From NCBI GenBank assembly GCA_001797615.1, contig MGPV01000017.1:50019-114018 (forward strand): a stretch of DNA of 64,000 nucleotides, read 5' to 3'. This stretch comes from Deltaproteobacteria bacterium GWC2_65_14. Lineage in GTDB: Bacteria; Desulfobacterota; Deferrimicrobia; Deferrimicrobiales; Deferrimicrobiaceae. The notes under the pieces were generated by a model. The model worked only from the letters and a program-made list of their open reading frames with translations, made no database searches and was not told the origin of the DNA. The translations under genes and the position numbers were made by a program. Below, one piece after another: positions 2,534 through 62,635 of the stretch. How positions within the stretch are numbered: position 1 is the first letter of the stretch; every line of letters begins with the position of its first letter.

Positions 2534-3445
2534 CTATCCGCCGATGTCGCTGCCGGTGAGGATCCGCAGCGCCTCCCGGTACTTCCCCGCCGTGTTCTCG
2601 ATCACGTCGGGAGGAAGCTTCGGCCCGGGGGCGGTCTTGTTCCAGGACAGGGTGAGCAGGTAGTCGCGGACGAACTGCTTGTCGAAGCTCTTCTGGGGAC
2701 CGCCCGCCCTGTATTCCGCCGCCGGCCAGAACCGGGAGGAATCGGGGGTCAGCGCCTCGTCGATCCAGAGGAGCCGGCCGTCCAGGAAGCCGAACTCGAA
2801 TTTCGTGTCGGCGATGATGATTCCCTTCCCCAGGGCGTACTCGGCCGCCTTCCGGTAGAGCGTCAGGGAAATGTCCCGCGCCGCCTCGGCCGTCTCCCTC
2901 CCCAGGATTCCGCACATCCGCTCGAAGGAGATGTTCATGTCGTGCTTCCCCTTCTCCTCCTTGGTGGCGGGGGTGAAGAGCGGCTCGGGGAGCCGGGACG
3001 ACTCGACGAGCCCCGCGGGGAGCCGGATGCCGCACACCTCGACATGCTCCCGGTATTCCGCCCAGCCGGACCCCGAGAGATACCCGCGGACGACGCATTC
3101 CACGGGGAGGGGGGAGGTCTTCCGGCAGAGCATCGAACGGCCGGCGAGCAGCTCCGCGTGAGGCCTGGCGGCAGGCGGGTATTCCCGCGGGTCCACGGAG
3201 AGCATGTGGTTCGGGACCACGTCCGAGAGCTTCCGGAACCAGAAGGCGGAGATCTGCGTGAGGACCTTCCCCTTCCCGGGAATCCCGTTGGGTAGGACGA
3301 CGTCGAAGGCGGAGATCCGGTCGGAGGCCACCAGGAGCAGCTTGCCGTCCGTCTCGTAGATGTCCCGGACCTTCCCCCGCGCGAGCAACGTCAGTCCCGC
3401 AAGTTTCGTCTCGACGACCGCCTGCCTTGCCATAGGATGTCCCAC
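2534..3445 (-). CDS. purC: Phosphoribosylaminoimidazole-succinocarboxamide synthase (SAICAR synthetase).
   Basis: 303-aa ORF. RGKVRDIYE...LLLVASDRISAFD is the canonical PurC N-terminal motif. Confidence 0.88.
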   Translation of the reverse strand: MGHPMARQAVVETKLAGLTLLARGKVRDIYETDGKLLLVASDRISAFDVVLPNGIPGKGKVLTQISAFWFRKLSDVVPNHMLSVDPREYPPAARPHAELLAGRSMLCRKTSPLPVECVVRGYLSGSGWAEYREHVEVCGIRLPAGLVESSRLPEPLFTPATKEEKGKHDMNISFERMCGILGRETAEAARDISLTLYRKAAEYALGKGIIIADTKFEFGFLDGRLLWIDEALTPDSSRFWPAAEYRAGGPQKSFDKQFVRDYLLTLSWNKTAPGPKLPPDVIENTAGKYREALRILTGSDIGG

Positions 3446-8633: not shown

Positions 8634-8729
8634 TGGCGGAAGCGTGAGGGAATCGAACCCCCCGGAGACATTGCTGCCTCCCGGCCGGATTTGAAGTCCG
8701 GGAGGGCCACCAGCGCCCTATCCGCTTCC
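8634..8729 (-). tRNA. selC: tRNA-Sec (selenocysteine tRNA, anticodon UCA).
   Basis: The reverse complement reads GGAAGCGG...CCGGACTTCAAATCCGG...GGTTCGATTCCC...CGCTTCCGCCA. The anticodon arm CUGGACUUCAAAUCCAG-like is identical in loop sequence to E. coli selC, with anticodon TCA. It has a long variable arm and a ~95-nt length with encoded CCA. Confidence 0.85.
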
Positions 8730-31789: not shown

Positions 31790-31962
31790 CCCGGGCCGCC
31801 CGTATCCAGGCCCGTCCCGATTGCGCTCGGATCGGCTTCGTCGCCTCGGAGAAACTCTCCGCGATAAAGGGACCCTGGCTCGCGGGGGGAATCCCCTCGG
31901 CTACGCTCGCGATCTGCGCCCGCTCGCTGCCGTTCCGCTCGCCGCAAGCTGCACCCTGTTGT

Positions 31963-32007
31963 GGGGACACTCCTGTGTTCTTCGCGGAATACACCAGGAA
32001 TGTCCCC
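31963..32007. repeat. Palindromic hairpin element GGGGACACTCCTG-N19-CAGGAATGTCCCC (copy 1, intergenic).
   Basis: Read directly. A 13-bp stem with one mismatch and a 19-nt loop. A second copy with the same architecture lies inside clpB at about 59536..59585. Confidence 0.6.
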
Positions 32008-32039
32008 GCCGCCTCGTCGACTCCCCCCACAGCGCTGCG

Positions 32040-32159
32040 GGTCCCCGGTTGCCGGCAAAGCAGCCGCAGGAGGGTGGGCGGAGTGAGGTAAAGCGCAGCC
32101 AAAGCGTGCGTCCTCCAAGGCGAGCCACGAACGCAGCCCCCCTCCGAGGATGCGGAGCC
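32040..32159. repeat. ~120-nt intergenic repeat, copy A, with conserved termini GGTCCCCGGTTGCCGGC...GCAGG and GCAGCCCCCCTCCGAGGnnnCGGAGCC.
   Basis: It aligns with a second copy at about 46697..46809 (upstream of dusB) in the same orientation. The termini are nearly identical and the middle is divergent. It contains a conserved small hairpin CTCCG-N6-CGGAG. Confidence 0.55.
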
Positions 32160-32211
32160 GTCACCGTGGTCCCCCGCGAGCCAGGGGCCTCTTCCGGGAA
32201 GGGCGGGGGGT

Positions 32212-33147
32212 TCAGCCCAGGCGTTCGGCGACCGCGGCCATCAGCAGCGGGAAGAGGATCTCGTGCGGTCCGATCAGGTGGTATCCCTTCCCGCCGGCCC
32301 GGGTCGGCCGCGACACGACGTTCACGTCCGGGCGGTAGTGCCGGATGAAGTCCATGTTCACCGTGGTGATCCGGGACAGCGGTTTGCCGAGATTCCGGGC
32401 GACCGAGACGGCCTTGAGGAAGACCTCCGGCAGGATCACCGCGGAGCCGACGTTCAGGTAGACCCCTCCCTGCAGCCGGCAGACCATTCCGCAGAAGATC
32501 CGGAAGTCCCGGAGCGAGGCCTCCCCCGACGCCGCGCCGTCCGCCTCGGGGTGCATGTGGACGATGTCGGCCCCCAGGCAGACATGGACGGTCACCGGAA
32601 CGCGGAGCTTCCAGGCCTGCGCAAGCAGGGAGCGGTCCCGGTGCGGCGCCCGGGAGCCCGCGATCGCCCTCCCGACGGCGGCGCCGTACCCCAGCCCGTC
32701 GCGAACCCCGTCCGCCACGGCGGCGTGGATGAACCGCGCCGTCTCCTTCGCCATCCCGAACGACCCGTCCCGGAGCCGCTCGGCCACGTCTTCGGAGGTC
32801 TTCCCCGCCAGGGCAAGCTCCGTGTCGTGGATCACTCCGGCCCCGTTCATCGCCACTCCGGTGAAAAGCCCCTCCGAAAGCCCCTGGAGCAGGAGGGGGG
32901 AGAGCCCCACCTTGATGAAGTGGGCGCCGATCCCGAGAAGGACGGGGGCGTTTTGCCTCCTCGCGCGCGCGATCGCGACCGCTACCGCGCGGAAGTCCCC
33001 CGCGGCGAGGTAGCCGGGAAGTCCGTCCAGGAACTCCCCGAACGTCATTCCCTTTCGCACGGGAGCGGCGAACCCCCGCAGGGAGACCTTGCTTTTCCGG
33101 GAACGGAGCGACTCCCGGCGCAGCCGGGAGAGATCGACCTCCTTCAT
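32212..33147 (-). CDS. Hypothetical conserved protein (311 aa) translationally coupled to gmhA.
   Basis: The start MKEVDLSRL overlaps the gmhA stop (ATGA). Gly-rich motifs GIGAHFIKVG and VAMNGAGVIHD are present, but I cannot assign a family. The N-terminal 500 aa of the 813-aa track ORF is artefact. Confidence 0.55.
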   Translation of the reverse strand: MKEVDLSRLRRESLRSRKSKVSLRGFAAPVRKGMTFGEFLDGLPGYLAAGDFRAVAVAIARARRQNAPVLLGIGAHFIKVGLSPLLLQGLSEGLFTGVAMNGAGVIHDTELALAGKTSEDVAERLRDGSFGMAKETARFIHAAVADGVRDGLGYGAAVGRAIAGSRAPHRDRSLLAQAWKLRVPVTVHVCLGADIVHMHPEADGAASGEASLRDFRIFCGMVCRLQGGVYLNVGSAVILPEVFLKAVSVARNLGKPLSRITTVNMDFIRHYRPDVNVVSRPTRAGGKGYHLIGPHEILFPLLMAAVAERLG

Positions 33148-33725
33148 CGCTTCCCGACCTCCCGGAAGAGGAGGGTGTCGGTCAGGTCGCAGAGGATGTG
33201 CCCGACCACGATGTGGGCCTCCTGGATCCTCGGCGTGCTCCTGGAGGGAACGCACAGGGAGATGTCGGCGAGGGAGGCGGCCTTCCCCCCCTCTCCGGTC
33301 AAGGCGATCGTGAGGATCCCCGCCTTCTTCGCCACGCGGAGCGCCTTGAGGACGTTCGCCGAGGAGCCGCTCGTGGTGATCCCCAGCACGACGTCCCCCT
33401 TTTTCCCCAGCGCCTTGACCTGCTTGCTGAACACCTCGTCGAAAGCGTAGTCGTTCGCGACGCTGGTGAGGATGGAGGTGTCCGTGGTGAGGGCGATCGC
33501 CGGGAGTGGGGGACGCTCGATCAGGAACCGGTTCATGAACTCGGCGGCGATGTGCTGGGCGTCCGCGGCGCTCCCGCCGTTGCCGAACAGCAGGATCTTT
33601 CCCCCCGCCTTGAACGAATCCGCGATCGCCTTCGCGGCCTCCAGGATCTCCTCCGTCATCGTCTCGATCATCCGGAGCCGGAGCTCCGCGCCTTCCCGAA
33701 ACGCCTTCGCGATCGTTTCCTTCAC
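33144..33725 (-). CDS. gmhA: Phosphoheptose isomerase (D-sedoheptulose-7-phosphate isomerase, SIS domain).
   Basis: 193 aa with the SIS-domain GmhA pattern (KILLFGNGGSAADAQHIAAEF, GITTSGSSANVLKA and the LTGEGGG region). Confidence 0.85.
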   Translation of the reverse strand: MKETIAKAFREGAELRLRMIETMTEEILEAAKAIADSFKAGGKILLFGNGGSAADAQHIAAEFMNRFLIERPPLPAIALTTDTSILTSVANDYAFDEVFSKQVKALGKKGDVVLGITTSGSSANVLKALRVAKKAGILTIALTGEGGKAASLADISLCVPSRSTPRIQEAHIVVGHILCDLTDTLLFREVGKR

Positions 33726-33888
33726 CGGGTTCCTCCGAGACGGGTAGGGTACGATAATCCGTTTCCCGCGGGGCTGTCAAGAAACGGCGCCCCGCGGGAG
33801 CGGCGCCGCCCCGGCTTTCCTTTCGGAAAAAACCGATGTAGCATTTAGGGCATCTTATTCTCCGACCGAATGCAAAGAGGAGCAAGGT

Positions 33889-43888: not shown

Positions 43889-46465
<2,577 letters not shown>

Positions 46466-46696
46466 TCCTTCCTCTCCTTGTTGTGTGATGAACGCCGTGA
46501 CGGGGGGATCTCCCCCGGAATCCGGACGAAAACGGAACGAAACCGTGCGCCGCAGGTTCCTGCCGGGCACATTAAACCGTCCTTGAATACCACGACTCCC
46601 CCCCACCGTCAAGGGGAAAACCGGCCGCCCAGACCCATTCCCGATGGAGCACACTCCGCGAAGGATGCCGGAGAGGGACCCCGGCTCGCGGGGGAG

Positions 46697-46809
46697 GGTC
46701 CCCGGTTGCCGGCGGAGCTGCCGCAGGAGGGGGGATGAGCGGAGATAAAAAGATTGATCCGCGGGCGGAGGGCGGGCGAAGCGAAGCCCCCCTCCGAGGC
46801 GGCGGAGCC
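46697..46809. repeat. ~113-nt intergenic repeat, copy B (upstream of dusB), homologous to copy A at 32040..32159.
   Basis: GGTCCCCGGTTGCCGGCGGAGCTGCCGCAGGAGGGG...GCGAAGCCCCCCTCCGAGGCGGCGGAGCC, with the same termini and orientation as copy A. Confidence 0.55.
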
Positions 46810-46866: not shown

Positions 46867-47823
46867 ATGGATTTCACCGGGAAACTGATCCTCGCCCCGC
46901 TCGCCGGGATCACCGACACCACCTTCCGAAGGCTCTGCCGGGAGAACGGGGCGGACATGGTCGTGACCGAGATGGCCTCCGCGAAGGGGATCCTCCGCGC
47001 CCCCGGCCGGACGGGCAGGTTCCTCGAGTATTCCGGGGAGGAGCGCCCGGTCGGGGCGCAGATCTTCGGGGCCGACCCCGGGGAGGTGGGGGCGGCGGCG
47101 GCCGAGATCGGACGGATGGGGTTCGACTTCGTGGACATCAACATGGGATGCCCCGTCCGGAGAGTCACGGCGGGCGGGGCCGGGGCGGCCCTGTGGTCGG
47201 ATCCCCCGCTTGCCGGCAGGATCGTCTCGGCGGCGGTCCGGGACGCCGGCATCCCGGTCACCGTCAAGATCCGTTCCGGGTTCGGGCAGGATCCCGGCGG
47301 CTACCTCGAGGTGGCGCGGGAGGCCTTCGCCGCGGGGGCGGCGGCCGTCACCCTCCACCCCCGAACGCGGGGGCAGATGTTCTCGGGACGAGCGGACTGG
47401 AGTCAGATCGCCCGGTTGAAGGAGGAATTCCCCGGCCGGGTCGTGATCGGGAACGGGGACGTCCGGGCACCGGAGGACGCGGCGCGGATCGTCGCGGAGA
47501 CCGGGTGCGACTCCGTGATGATCGGAAGGGCCGCGCTCGGAAACCCCTGGATCTTCGGCGAGGCGAAACGGTCGGCGATGGCGGCGGCGGGAGGAGGACC
47601 GGGGCCGGTCCTGCCGGGCCCGGACCCGGAGGCGCGGAAAGCGCTGATCCTTCGCCACGGAGAGGAGATGCACCGCCGCCACGGGGAACACGGGATCCGG
47701 GAGATGCGCAAGCACCTGGCCTGGTACAGCCGGGGGATTCCGGGGGCGGCCGCCTTCCGCGGCCGGCTGGTCGGGGTCCGCACCCTCGCGGAACTCCGGG
47801 AGGCCGTGGAGCGATTCTTTTGA
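46867..47823 (+). CDS. dusB: tRNA-dihydrouridine synthase (DusB-like).
   Basis: LILAPLAGITDTTFRRL, MVVTEMASAKG, a TIM-barrel Dus signature (VDINMGCP.. and the active-site Cys) and a C-terminal helical domain. Confidence 0.85.
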   Translation: MDFTGKLILAPLAGITDTTFRRLCRENGADMVVTEMASAKGILRAPGRTGRFLEYSGEERPVGAQIFGADPGEVGAAAAEIGRMGFDFVDINMGCPVRRVTAGGAGAALWSDPPLAGRIVSAAVRDAGIPVTVKIRSGFGQDPGGYLEVAREAFAAGAAAVTLHPRTRGQMFSGRADWSQIARLKEEFPGRVVIGNGDVRAPEDAARIVAETGCDSVMIGRAALGNPWIFGEAKRSAMAAAGGGPGPVLPGPDPEARKALILRHGEEMHRRHGEHGIREMRKHLAWYSRGIPGAAAFRGRLVGVRTLAELREAVERFF

Positions 47824-58515: not shown

Positions 58516-61134
58516 TCAGGCAGGTCCGCGGAACCGGAACCCGGAGGCTTCGTCCGGATCCACAAGAACGGCGTCTCCATCCGAAAATTCCCCCTTGAGG
58601 ATGCGGAGAGCCAGCGGGTCCTCGAGATGCTTCGCGATCGCCCTCCGCAGCGGCCTCGCGCCGAAGGTAGGATCGTACCCAAGCTCCGCGATCCTCTCCC
58701 TGGCGGCATCCGAGAGCTCGACGGTGATCTTCCGGTCGGCAAGACGGGCGTTGAGCTCCCGGAGCATGATCCCAACGATCCGCGCAAGCTCCCCCTTTCC
58801 CAGGGAGCGGAACAGGACGATCTCGTCGATCCGGTTCAAAAATTCCGGGCGGAATTCCCGGTGCAGCTCCTCCATCACCTTCTCCCGGATCGCCTCCTCA
58901 CCCGTCCCGTAGAGCTCCCGGATCCAGTGCGATCCGACGTTCGAGGTGAGGATCGCCACGGTGTTCCGGAAGTCGACGGTCCGTCCCTTCCCGTCGGTGA
59001 GCCGGCCGTCCTCGAGGACCTGCAGGAGGAGGTTGAAGACGTCCCGGTGCGCCTTTTCGATCTCGTCGAACAGGACGACGGTGTACGGCTTCCGCCGGAC
59101 CGCCTCGGTCAGCGCCCCGCCCTCCTCGTACCCCACGTACCCGGGGGGCGCGCCGATCATCCGGGCGACCGAGTGCTTTTCCATGTACTCGGACATGTCC
59201 AGTCGGACCATCGCCGCCTCGTCGTCGAAGAGAAACTGGGCAAGCGCCCGCGCCAGTTCCGTCTTGCCGACCCCGGTCGGCCCCAGGAAGAGGAACGACC
59301 CGATCGGCCGTCTCGGGTCCTTCAGCCCGGACTTCGCCCGCCGGACGGCGTTCGAGACGAGCCGGACCGCCTCGTCCTGCCCCACGACCCGCTCGGCGAG
59401 CCGTTCCTCCATCCGGAGCAGCTTCTCCACCTCCGCCTCGACCAGCCGGGAGACCGGGATGCCGGTCCACCGGGAGACGACCTGGGCGATATCCTCCTCG
59501 TCCACCTCCTCCTTCAGGAGGCGCCCCTCCGCTTTGGGGGGGACACTCCTGTTCCCATCGGCGAGAAAACCAGGAGTGTCCCCCCGCAGGGCTTCCGCCT
59601 CCCGCTGCAGCGCCGGAAGGATGGAATACTTCAGCTCCGAGGCCCGCTCGAGGTTTCCCTCCCGCTCCGCCCGCTGCATCTCGGAGAGCGCCCGCTCGAT
59701 CCTCTCCTTCACCTCGCGGCTCTTCCCGATCGACCGCTTCTCCTCCTCCCAGCGGGAACGAAGCTCACCGGCCCTCCCGGAGAGCCGGGAAAGCTCCTCC
59801 TCGATACGCGCCAGCCGCTGGGCGGAGACCGGGTCGGTCTCCTTCGTGAGGGCCTGCTTTTCGATCCGGAGCTGGGTGATCCGCCGCTCCACCTCATCGA
59901 TTCCGGTCGGGACGGAGTCGATCTCGATCTTGAGTTTCGAGGCCGCCTCGTCCATGAGGTCGATCGCCTTGTCCGGCAGAAAGCGGTCGGGGATGTACCG
60001 GTGGGAGAGGGTGGCGGCGGCGACGAGGGCGGAATCCTTGATCCGCACGCCGTGGTGGACCTCGTATCGCCCTTTCAGCCCCCGCAGGATGGCGATCGCG
60101 TCCTCCACGGAAGGCTCCGGGACCATGACCGGCTGGAAGCGCCTCTCCAGCGCCGCGTCCTTCTCCACGTGCTTCCGGTACTCGTCGAAGGTGGTCGCGC
60201 CGACGCAGCGGAGCTCGCCCCGGGCCAGGGCGGGCTTGAGCATGTTCGAGGCGTCCATCGCCCCTTCCGCCTTCCCGGCCCCCACCAGGGTGTGGAGCTC
60301 GTCGATGAAGAGGACGACCCTCCCCTCCGCCGCGGCGATCTCCTTGAGGACCGCCTTGAGCCGGTCCTCGAACTCACCCCGGTACTTCGCCCCGGCGATC
60401 AGCGCCCCCATGTCCAGCGCCAGCACCCGCTTGTCCCGAAGCCCCTCCGGGACATCTCCCGAGACGATCCGCTGGGCCAGCCCTTCCGCGATGGCGGTCT
60501 TCCCCACCCCCGGGTCGCCGATCAGAACGGGGTTGTTCTTGGTCCGCCGCGACAGGACCTGGATCACCCTGCGGATCTCGTCGTCCCTCCCGATGACGGG
60601 GTCGAGCTTTTCCCGTCGGGCCAGCTCCGTCAGATCCCGGCAGTACTTGTCGAGGGCCTGGTACTTTGCCTCCGGGTTCTCGTCGGTGATTCGCTGCGTC
60701 CCCCGGATTCCGGTCAGGGCCGACAGCAGCGCCTCGCGGTTCGCCCCGTGCTTCCGGAGCAACCCCTCGATCTTCCCCCCCTCCGCGGCCATCGCGAGGA
60801 GGAAGTGCTCGGCGGAGAGAAACTCGTCCTTGAAGGCGTCCGCCTCGGACATCGCACGGGAAAAGAGCGGCTCCATCCGGGGGGAGAGCCCCCGGCTCAC
60901 CGCGCCGGTGACCTTCGGGAAGGACGCGGCCATCGAGGCCGCGTCGGATTCGAGGGAAGGCAGCGCCACCCCGGTGCGCGCGAAGAGGTCCCGGGCAACC
61001 CCGCCCTCCTGCCGGAGCAGCGCGAGGAAGAGATGCTCCGGCTCCACCTGGGCGTGCGCCTCGCCGGAGGCGATGCGCACCGCCTCCTGCAGCGCCTCCT
61101 GCGATTTGACGGTGAGCTTGTCGAGAGAGATCAT
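58516..61134 (-). CDS. clpB: Chaperone ClpB (Hsp104-type disaggregase; two AAA+ modules plus coiled-coil M-domain).
   Basis: 872 aa with NBD1 Walker [12 protein letters not shown]2 Walker [10 protein letters not shown], a coiled-coil M-domain and the sensor-2 GARPLRRAI. There is a ~13-aa insertion relative to E. coli ClpB near the M-domain/NBD2 junction (see findings). Confidence 0.92.
59536..59585. repeat. Palindromic hairpin element GGGGGGACACTCCTG-N19-CAGGAGTGTCCCCC (copy 2), embedded in-frame within clpB.
   Basis: Read directly: a perfect 14-bp stem with a 19-nt loop. It matches the intergenic copy at 31963..32007 in arm sequence and loop length, and in about half of the loop positions. 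Confidence 0.55.
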
Positions 61135-61168
61135 CGGGTCATCTCGTGGCGGGGTACTCTCCTCAAGA

Positions 61169-62635
61169 TTACCGGTTCTTCACGGCGAGGAAGATCCGCC
61201 CCTCCCCGCGCTCCACCAGAAACAGCACGGTCTTGTCGTCCTTGACCTTCTTCATCACCCGCTGGAACTCCCCGGTGTCCTTCACCGGCTCCCGGTTGAT
61301 CTGCCGGATGATGTCCCCTTCCCGGAACCCGGCGTCCTCCGCGGGGCTTCCCGACTCGACGGAGGTGACCAGGACCCCCTGCCGGCTCTCGATTCCCATG
61401 TGCCGGGCGATCTCGGGGGTGATCGCCTGGACGGTGAGCCCCAGCCCCTTCGACAGGTCGCCACCCTCCTTGCTGCGGGCGGGCTCCTCCCCTTCCATCT
61501 CCGCGATCGTCAAGGGGATCTCGATCCGCTTGGTGTCGCGCACCACCGTGACCTGCACCTTCTTCCCCGGGCTCGTGGAGGCGACGACCTGCGGAAGCTC
61601 GTGCTGGTCCTCCACCTCCTTCCCGTCGAAGCGGACGATCACGTCCCCGGAGCGGATCCCGGCCTTCTCCGCCGGGCCGCCCTTGGTCACGTCGGCCACC
61701 AGCGCCCCCTTCCCCTCGGGGACCTTGAGCGACTCCGCCATGTCCGGAGTCAGCTTCTGGATGTAGACGCCGAGCCACCCCCGCGTCACCTTCCCCTTCT
61801 CCTTCAGCTGGCCGAGCACCGCTTTCGCCATCTGGATCGGGGTCGCGAAGCCGATCCCCTGGCCCCCCTGGATGATCGCCGTGTTGATCCCGACGACCTC
61901 CCCTTTCAGGTTGAACAGAGGCCCTCCGGAGTTCCCGGGGTTGATCGAGGCGTCGGTCTGGATGAAGTCGTCGTACGGTCCGGATCCGATCACCCTCCCC
62001 TTCGCGCTGACGATCCCGGCCGTGACGGTATGCCCGAGGCCGAAGGGGTTCCCGATCGCCACGACCCACTCCCCGATCTCCAGCCCCTCGGAGTCCCCGA
62101 GACGGACATAGGGAAGCGTCTTTCCCGGCTTGATCTTGATGAGGGCGATGTCGGTCTTCGGGTCGGTCCCCACCACCTCGGCCTTGTAGTCCTCCTTGTC
62201 CAGAAGGGTCACGGTGATCTCGTCGGCCTTCTCGACGACGTGGTTGTTCGTCAGGATATACCCGTCCCCCGAGACGAGGAACCCGGACCCCAGGCTCCTG
62301 CGCTTCTGCTCCCGCGGGATGTTTCCGAAGAAGTTGTCGAAAAAGTCCTCGAAGGGATCCCTCCCGAAGGGGGATCGCATGCGCGGCCGGCTGAACCGCA
62401 CCACCTGGGTCGTGCTGATGTTCACGACCGACGGAGAGGTCCCCTTCACCAGCGACGGGATATCGACGGGGAGCAGTCGACCCGGGGTCGGGACCGGGGC
62501 TGCGGAGCCCGCATCCCGCCCCTTCTCCCCCAGAAACGCGTCCGAGAGCGGCGAAAGGTTGAACCCCGCCGAGAGCACGAACCCGGCCGCCACCGCTGCC
62601 AGGACCAGGACCACGACCTTGCTTTTCCGGATCAC
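61169..62635 (-). CDS. Periplasmic serine endoprotease DegP/HtrA family (trypsin-like domain plus two PDZ domains).
   Basis: Signal peptide [18 protein letters not shown], catalytic triad context (..ILTNNHVV.., ..DIALIK.., GNSGGPL) and two PDZ domains. Confidence 0.88.

Follow-up and report, generated by a model that had tools for sequence, protein, structure and literature searches.

Two intergenic sequences in the window, as we call the whole 64-kb stretch of DNA analysed here, raise the question of whether they belong to one family and, if they do, whether that family consists of small RNA genes or of MITE-like repeats, the two possibilities left by the original prediction. The near-identical ends of these sequences (copies A and B), their common plus-strand orientation and their positions are all borne out: a 36-nt 5' block is identical at 33 of 36 nucleotides (32039-32074 in copy A, 46696-46731 in copy B), and a 25-nt 3' block at 23 of 25 (32135-32159 and 46785-46809, respectively). 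The 3' end had been written as GC(A/G)AGCCCCCC, which is slightly off, copy A reading GCAGCCCCCC and copy B GCGAAGCCCCCC; the pattern itself is real. Chance similarity of two GC-rich stretches might be suspected from the base composition of the window (67.6% G+C), and the 17-mer alone, for which 1.54 matches are expected when three mismatches are permitted, is not significant, but the matches in A and B are both exact. The 3' pattern AGCCCCCCTCCGAGGNNNCGGAGCC is found twice in the window against 0.03 expected, a count of two being reached in none of 100 shuffles, and the search for further copies returned more than 170 related ones outside the window. The similarity of A and B is far beyond chance, and an explanation by coincidence, already refuted, has next to no probability left.

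Extent and state of the two window copies

A third block common to both copies, GGGACCCYGGCTCGCGGGGG, is found at 31869-31888 (+) and 46675-46694 (+), with an inverted copy at 32171-32190, and its position places the start of copy A at about 31869 and not at 32040. An nhmmer profile built on 11 long forms of the element recognizes the window at 31868-32159 over profile positions 2-274, with a score of 213.7 bits. The covariance model R1, run with filters off, returned only copies A and B in the 64-kb window, the next match scoring 19.3 bits; both copies had been included in its training alignment. The parts of the two copies are listed in Table 1.

Table 1. Parts of copies A and B and the adjoining inverted fragment, in window positions
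Feature	Position	Strand	Remarks
Copy A, 5' domain (M1), long form	31869..32046	+	sharp start GGGACCCTGGCTCGCGGGGGG; closes with GGGTCCCC, complementary to GGGACCC
Copy A, nested palindrome (M5), GGGGACACTCCT...AGGAATGTCCCC	31963..32007	+	in variable apex of 5' domain; motif scan
Copy A, core module (M2)	32047..32159	+	imperfect hairpin of ~110 nt; R1 95.7 bits, E = 1.6e-19
Copy A, M2 5' arm	GGC 32054-32056; GCAGCC 32060-32065; GGAGGGTGGGC 32069-32079	+	
Copy A, M2 3' arm	GCCCCCCTCC 32136-32145; GGATGC 32148-32153; GCC 32157-32159	+	
Inverted fragment of the element's first 20 nt (AGGCCCCTGGCTCGCGGGGG)	32171..32190	-	2-mismatch pattern search; 16/16 inverted match
Copy B, remnant of 5' domain	46675..46703	+	first 20 nt joined straight to GGGTCCCC; domain interior deleted
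Copy B, core module (M2)	46704..46809	+	R1 55.5 bits, E = 2e-10; nhmmer only 31.9 bits
Copy B, M2 5' arm	GGC 46711-46713; GCTGCC 46717-46722; GGAGGGGGG 46726-46734	+	
Copy B, M2 3' arm	GCCCCCCTCC 46786-46795; GGCGGC 46798-46803; GCC 46807-46809	+	

Folded on their own, the window copies are unremarkable (z = -1.13 for A and -1.4 for B). Copy A has kept the interior of the core module and its apical hairpin is degenerate; the inverted fragment stands 11 nt past its 3' end, within lineage-specific inserted DNA. What is left of the 5' domain in copy B forms a hairpin, GGGACCCC...GGGTCCCC, and a similar but smaller internal deletion of this domain is seen elsewhere (L021, 4210-4370). The module of copy B has kept its three closing helices, one of which, GCUGCC:GGCGGC, contains a U·G wobble and can pair on the plus strand only, and carries in place of the usual apex an unrelated hairpin, GCGGA-GATAAAAAGATTGA-TCCGC, of which no second occurrence was found in the ~1 Mb of collected DNA. 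Copy A occupies the 3' spacer of two convergent genes, and copy B the promoter region of dusB, its module ending 57 nt upstream of the ATG at 46867, in agreement with the distance of about 60 nt given in the original prediction. The best named matches of both the DusB protein and the MBL-fold hydrolase of the window belong to Candidatus Deferrimicrobiaceae, the clade in which the window itself is placed; an exact look-up of its DusB protein gave no recorded match. We regard it as probable, at roughly 0.6, that one mosaic interspersed repeat was inserted long ago at both sites and has partly decayed in copies A and B.

Distribution of the family and occupancy of its sites

An exact-match scan with the 3' block against one genome per species returned 24 loci, 19 of which carry the element; these come from seven MAG assemblies, with no more than six in any one, and six of the seven are annotated as Deferrimicrobiaceae or 'delta proteobacterium', one contig being labelled Limnocylindria. 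This contig (DATHRT010000109.1, labelled Candidatus Limnocylindria; L006 and L017) is probably mis-binned, judging by its gene context, which is that of the Deferrimicrobiaceae contig L021, and by flanks that are ~94-96% identical. A metagenome scan with a seed inside the core, which left the termini free to vary, gave at least 120 stretches. As both seeds require an exact match, the diversity of the family is under-sampled by these scans. The profile of 11 long forms made 176 matches in ~1 Mb of collected genome and metagenome DNA: 111 to the core module only, 27 to the long form, 11 to the 5' domain only and 27 that are atypical or cut by an end. The elements are non-coding and 110-320 nt long. 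At least 10 contigs end within a copy (L034, L061, L063, L065, L066, L086, L094, L098, L101 and L103), as is expected of a repeat that breaks assemblies. Only three viral contigs were matched in two scans of viral contigs, giving no sign of a phage association. Our literature search found no paper on repeats in Deferrimicrobiaceae, nor one containing the core sequence; the family is previously undescribed, and the kind of mobile repeat is an ordinary one for bacteria.

Comparison of orthologous sites reveals that the element comes and goes among close relatives. The hppA-dusB spacer lacks it in three genomes with DusB proteins 78-79% identical to that of the window (L027, L028 and L029), holds only an 11-nt remnant, GATGCGGAGCC, in a fourth (L026, DusB 82% identical) and is occupied in the closest relative (L025, 97%), where the contig begins inside the element; the closest relatives are short contigs of 97% identity. 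A conserved leader RNA of dusB or hppA can be rejected as the identity of copy B, the orthologous spacers being without the element. There is, beside the start of hppA at about 46450-46625, a non-coding stretch conserved in L026-L029 (ggcattccttcctctccttg...gtgacggg.atctc.cccgga...caccgtcaaggggaaaacc), which on its conservation appears to be a separate leader or promoter feature of the H+-pyrophosphatase gene, unrelated to the repeat. The gene pair around copy A, the MBL gene and a convergent gene of ~310 aa, is syntenic in four relatives (L153-L156), and the spacer between the two measures 422 nt in the window, 0 nt in L155 (TGA|TCA), an unrelated 110 nt in both L153 and L154, and 204 nt made up of other repeats in L156; in L153, similarity to the window resumes at ~32191, just to the right of the inverted fragment. 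The convergent gene is a 309-aa ORF (32212-33141, minus strand) with coding-like GC3 and no Pfam domain, located upstream of an SIS-domain gene (33144-33776) and having orthologues of 310 or 311 aa in L153-L156 with synteny kept. In L156 the spacer orthologous to the copy A site is filled (3203-3406) by two ~95-nt direct repeats that contain AGGAACGTCCCTGTTCT / AACAGGGACGGTCCTG; a small repeat on this palindrome also adjoins elements in L001, L004/L012, L014, L039, L108 and L140. Judged from these comparisons, copies A and B are insertions, their sites lacking them in related genomes.

Further filled and empty alleles were paired at the priA site (L001 and L147 filled, L024 and L040 empty) and for L139 against L041, L148 against L100, L144 against L095, and L126 and L099 against L136, and long and short forms alternate at one site in L130 versus L046 and in L021, L023 and L079 versus L017. 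The 'empty' priA alleles (L024, 352-375, and L040) are not wholly empty: directly after the priA stop codon they have GCCCCCCTCCGAGGTAGCGGAGCC, the final 24 nt of the module. This remnant could reflect a deletion instead of an insertion, or be a solo hairpin, or a pre-existing one that served as insertion target. No target-site duplication is recognizable at the filled/empty junctions, where the priA site alone gives a 2-nt GA ambiguity, and no conserved target sequence could be defined from these junctions and the flanks of long forms.

Fold of the core module and mosaic forms

The core module (~110 nt) forms a long imperfect hairpin with three helices, P1-P3, an asymmetric interior and an apical hairpin, GCCGUGC...GCACGGC. 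Its outer helices are GGC:GCC, G(C/U)(A/C)GCC:GGC(U/G)(G/A)C and GGAGG(G)GGGGC:GCCCC(G)CCCUCC, and the strands of the interior, AGUGAGGUWAAG (onward AGUGAGGUWAAGCGCAG) and CGAGCCACGAACGGA, are nearly invariant. The conserved termini first noticed thus form opposite sides of a single stem, and it is their mutual pairing that keeps them conserved. The divergent middle of ~50 nt is true of the A/B pair only, and looked variable because the apex of copy B has been replaced and the apical hairpin of copy A is degenerate, whereas among the 114 members compared it is in the middle that conservation is highest. Conserved ends around a variable core must be given up as a picture of the family: copy B, which is aberrant, is alone in having a variable core. 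The supposed conserved CTCCG/CGGAG mini-hairpin fares no better, most members having CGCAG without a compensating change.

The compensatory changes that the original prediction proposed to look for are present and strand-specific. In 112 distinct modules, 96.3% of 2975 cells are paired, compared with 38-45% when partners are slid, and double changes occur at eight pairs (85 cells), which none of 500 shuffles matched; as many copies are kin by descent, these covariation counts overstate the number of independent events. Pair 21/119, for example, is CG in 57 modules, UA in 31 and UG in 20, pair 22/118 is CG in 63 and AU in 33, and pair 61/83 is CG in 95, GC in 9 and AU in 2, while helix P2 occurs as GCAGCC:GGCUGC, GUCGCC:GGCGAC and GCCGCC:GGCGGC. 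There are 136 G·U and only 20 A·C among the paired cells, with three sites giving 104 of the 136 G·U and the remaining sites 32 versus 20, an excess which indicates that the pairing strand is the plus strand, the orientation in which the copies were first described. This strand-specific covariation suggests that the element acts through a folded single strand. Canonical members reach z = -4.1 to -4.6, with folding energies of -60 to -62 kcal/mol; on the reverse strand the fold is slightly worse. In the interior there is almost no variation against which pairing can be tested. A three-way junction with a GCGC...GCGC hairpin (P4) was considered and rejected on uncompensated changes (L006, L101, L060 and copy A) and on a minimum-energy fold that is a single rod. 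The unpaired nucleotides are near-invariant across more than 100 distinct copies, which is more than is typical for a MITE and would fit a functional RNA as well. With Rfam 15, no family matched either copy at gathering thresholds in a search of the whole window; at E ≤ 10 only chance matches off the module (miRNA, lncRNA and ZMP-ZTP) were obtained around copy A and none around copy B, and four loci with canonical members (G2) gave no match to the module at E ≤ 1. Elsewhere in the window, a selenocysteine tRNA gene is located at 8638-8729 on the minus strand (Rfam tRNA-Sec, 74.4 bits).

The module occurs alone, with the 5' domain, between inverted arms and with M4 or M5 inserts. The long form, in which it is fused to the 5' domain, measures 250-320 nt and in alignment has a sharp start, GGGACCCTGGCTCG, and a sharp end, ...GCGGAGCC, and is without simple terminal inverted repeats. 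Its 5' domain (~170 nt) is structured and closed by GGGACCC/GGGTCCC, and contains an internal helix, GGGGGG-TTCCNNN / NNNGGAA-CCCCCC, with six compensated variants among copies, the NNN being GCA, AC, CC, GCGCA, TCGC or TAT and each matched on the opposite arm. The apex of this domain accepts inserts: some long forms carry the M5 palindrome (the window, L001, L147, L069 and L053), and those without it have either another GC hairpin there or no insert. Inverted arms of ~57 nt (...CTAAGTGC..CATAAATACGGCAACGTATCGGGAAG...) flank the module in most metagenome copies, a form of another lineage with a total length of ~270 nt, and the same arms can alternatively carry the 5' domain (L148) or another module of ~70 nt, sometimes several together; a large insert between these arms was looked for and rejected, the arms always adjoining small modules.

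Other arrangements were observed alongside these. In either orientation, the ~70-nt module, GGCGCCCCAGTACGAGCTTCGCGCTGCTGGGGTACCCCCGCAGTAGGAAGAACGGGGGGCACAGCG, is nested together with the core module inside the 57-nt arms at L110 894-1250, L120 1300-1560, L125 11106-11350 and L081 2540-2620. L147 begins with the 3' end of a tmRNA gene (1-39); within ~90 nt of it come three core modules in tandem (129-480), partly degenerate and on the strand opposite to the tmRNA gene. In the window itself, a perfect palindrome with 12-bp arms, GGGGACACTCCT(21 nt)AGGAGTGTCCCC, at 59539-59583 is the same hairpin module as that in the 5' domain of copy A, and lies in frame in a variable linker of a ClpB-like ORF (58516-61179, minus strand). 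By analogy it may be an in-frame repeat insertion of the type of the Rickettsia palindromic elements; the ClpB-like homologues retrieved are only ~50% identical, and linker length varies among them.

Nature of the element and its spread

Copies of the module are intergenic and near gene ends, in either orientation, with a median distance to the stop codon of ~59-75 nt, and all four arrangements of neighbouring genes are frequent around them: orientation is the same as that of the upstream gene in 62 cases and opposite in 51, and the same as that of the downstream gene in 60 and opposite in 57. If the copies were genes for independently transcribed structured small RNAs, whether trans-acting or protein-binding, then the covarying helices, the one-strand excess of G·U, the almost invariant unpaired segments and the strength with which canonical members fold (z down to -4.6) would all be accounted for, and a family outside Rfam could conceivably be an undescribed class. 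However, conservation starts sharply at the element and the upstream sequence differs at every short-form copy, which leaves no promoter in common, and the copies aligned lack a T-run past the 3' end. Copies are gained and lost among close relatives and exist as truncated, nested, tandem and half versions, those of the window persist despite the loss of parts of the core, and the reverse strand folds almost equally well. With no preferred orientation and no Rfam match either, the small RNA branch of the original prediction finds no support as a set of independent sRNA genes, and we think it rather unlikely. Exaptation of repeats into cis-acting RNA is known for REP and ERIC elements, and it is possible to imagine the module as a hairpin in 3' UTRs that would stop exonucleases or dampen read-through from one gene into the next. 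The closeness to stop codons (medians of ~60-75 nt), the 57 copies oriented towards the 3' end of a convergent gene, the 62 located after a gene on the same strand, the copies within operons (as in the ffh-rpsP-trmD region of L014) and the L139 insert placed directly 3' of a terminator-like hairpin are in keeping with such a role. Against it, orientation is random despite the better fold of one strand, orthologous genes manage without the element, simple protection needs no conserved unpaired core, and 16 copies, copy B among them, lie between divergent genes and so in promoter regions; a cis-acting role is unlikely as the explanation of the family.

A strand-specific fold, sharp ends and the absence of a visible target-site duplication are typical of the single-stranded 'peel and paste' transposition of IS200/IS605 elements, from which the repeat might derive as a PATE, or it might carry a guide-RNA scaffold (a TnpB omega-RNA or an IS110 bridge RNA). 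We consider both very unlikely. No TnpA/TnpB-like or other recurrent enzyme gene adjoins any copy, no tetra- or pentanucleotide is conserved 5' of 12 long forms (TCTG, CCGA, TGAA, CCCG, ACCG, TCCA and others), and local GC skew in the orientation of the element shows no significant bias (57 positive, 46 negative, p = 0.32), a weak test on fragments of 4-14 kb. A guide-RNA carrier is further contradicted by the second-lineage form, where the module is internal between long inverted arms and a flanking guide is thereby impossible, and by the four G2 loci, which had no Rfam match at E ≤ 1. More generally, clustering of 647 flanking ORFs gave no recurrent transposase-like family, the neighbours being unrelated housekeeping genes, with two-component proteins, aconitase, ABC-F, PriA, TsaD, FadB-like, HisA/F-like and Asd as the recurrent families, and no autonomous partner (transposase, HUH enzyme or reverse transcriptase) was found in ~1 Mb of flanking DNA. 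It is interesting to speculate that the module is more than a passenger palindrome and constitutes a structured nucleic acid with a function of its own and of a new type, a scaffold of RNA or folded single-stranded DNA for a putative structure-specific or RNA-guided mobilization enzyme. Several unrelated repeat backbones (the 5'-domain fusion, the MITE with 57-nt arms and tandem arrays) would have captured it on that account, and the invariant interior would be its binding or catalytic core. We hold this idea to be improbable.

Our preferred reading, that Candidatus Deferrimicrobiaceae and their close relatives carry a non-autonomous, MITE/BIME-like interspersed repeat of mosaic build which spreads via a folded single strand, probably applies, and its first part follows from the spread in many copies, the gain and loss, the nesting, the random orientation and the missing gene signals. 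The MITE-like branch of the original prediction is upheld by the many further copies, their presence or absence at orthologous sites, the sharp ends, the mosaic and nested forms and the contigs that break inside copies. Like MITEs such as the Correia elements of Neisseria, the repeat is short, non-coding and multi-copy, shows insertion polymorphism, breaks assemblies and has inverted-repeat ends, the blocks of the module being imperfect inverted repeats and the second lineage having arms of 57 nt; it is in this second-lineage form (~270 nt) that the likeness to a classical MITE is strongest. Unlike cut-and-paste MITEs, which do not need a single-stranded form, it has a G·U/A·C asymmetry that suggests one, and neither a target-site duplication at the junctions examined nor, in the collected flanks, an autonomous IS with matching ends as parent was recognized. 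With the BIME/REP sequences of enterobacteria it has in common that it is extragenic, multi-copy, hairpin-forming, often just past genes and variable between related genomes, and that it is a mosaic of a few modules in varying order and orientation. However, REPs are palindromes of ~35 nt (20-40 nt) that have a GTAG-type head and are partnered by a RAYT, whereas here there is a hairpin of ~110 nt with an asymmetric interior; no GTAG head was found in the module and no RAYT-like recurrent enzyme among the 647 flanking ORFs. ERIC/IRU and the pneumococcal BOX elements resemble it as imperfect palindromes or modular units of ~100-130 nt that lie near genes in either orientation, have longer variants through internal insertions and keep their pairing by compensatory changes, yet they share no sequence similarity with it and belong to another phylum, the 5' domain, the 57-nt arms, M4 and M5 being specific to the present clade. 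The repeat-like candidate RNA motifs of Rfam, structured and intergenic, are similar in their covarying fold, in their high copy number per genome and in a role, at the RNA or DNA level, that is uncertain, and differ in that no Rfam 15 family matches the window copies or canonical members. An integron attC site (RYYYAAC ... GTTRRRY) was rejected, the ends reading GGCGSAG... and ...GCRGAGCC and the copies being dispersed among housekeeping genes.

The maintained strand-specific pairing and the invariant interior indicate that the sequences from which copies are produced are selected for a folded single strand, and we infer that the most likely reason is recognition of this fold by a trans-acting enzyme, as single-stranded DNA or as RNA. 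Our working hypothesis is that new copies would be made from master copies, the folded single strand of which (ssDNA or RNA) would be recognized by a candidate enzyme encoded elsewhere in the genome. Such recognition of master copies would explain why single insertions, A and B among them, decay although fold and unpaired core stay conserved, and effects on neighbouring genes would be incidental.

The finding is considerably larger than the original prediction suggested, a new family of a known kind of element and an undescribed repeat system in the uncultured phylum Candidatus Deferrimicrobiota. For annotation of the window, copies A and B are decayed members of this family and not regulators of dusB, and they should be entered neither as a dusB/hppA regulatory RNA nor as sRNA genes; local effects on expression, of copy B in the dusB promoter region and of copy A in the convergent 3' spacer, are possible but unproven. 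The repeats remodel intergenic regions among close relatives and break metagenome assemblies. The core module, of which more than 110 distinct sequences are available and which combines covarying helices with an invariant interior, is a candidate Rfam-type motif, and provides a handle for tracing the putative enzyme that recognizes it.
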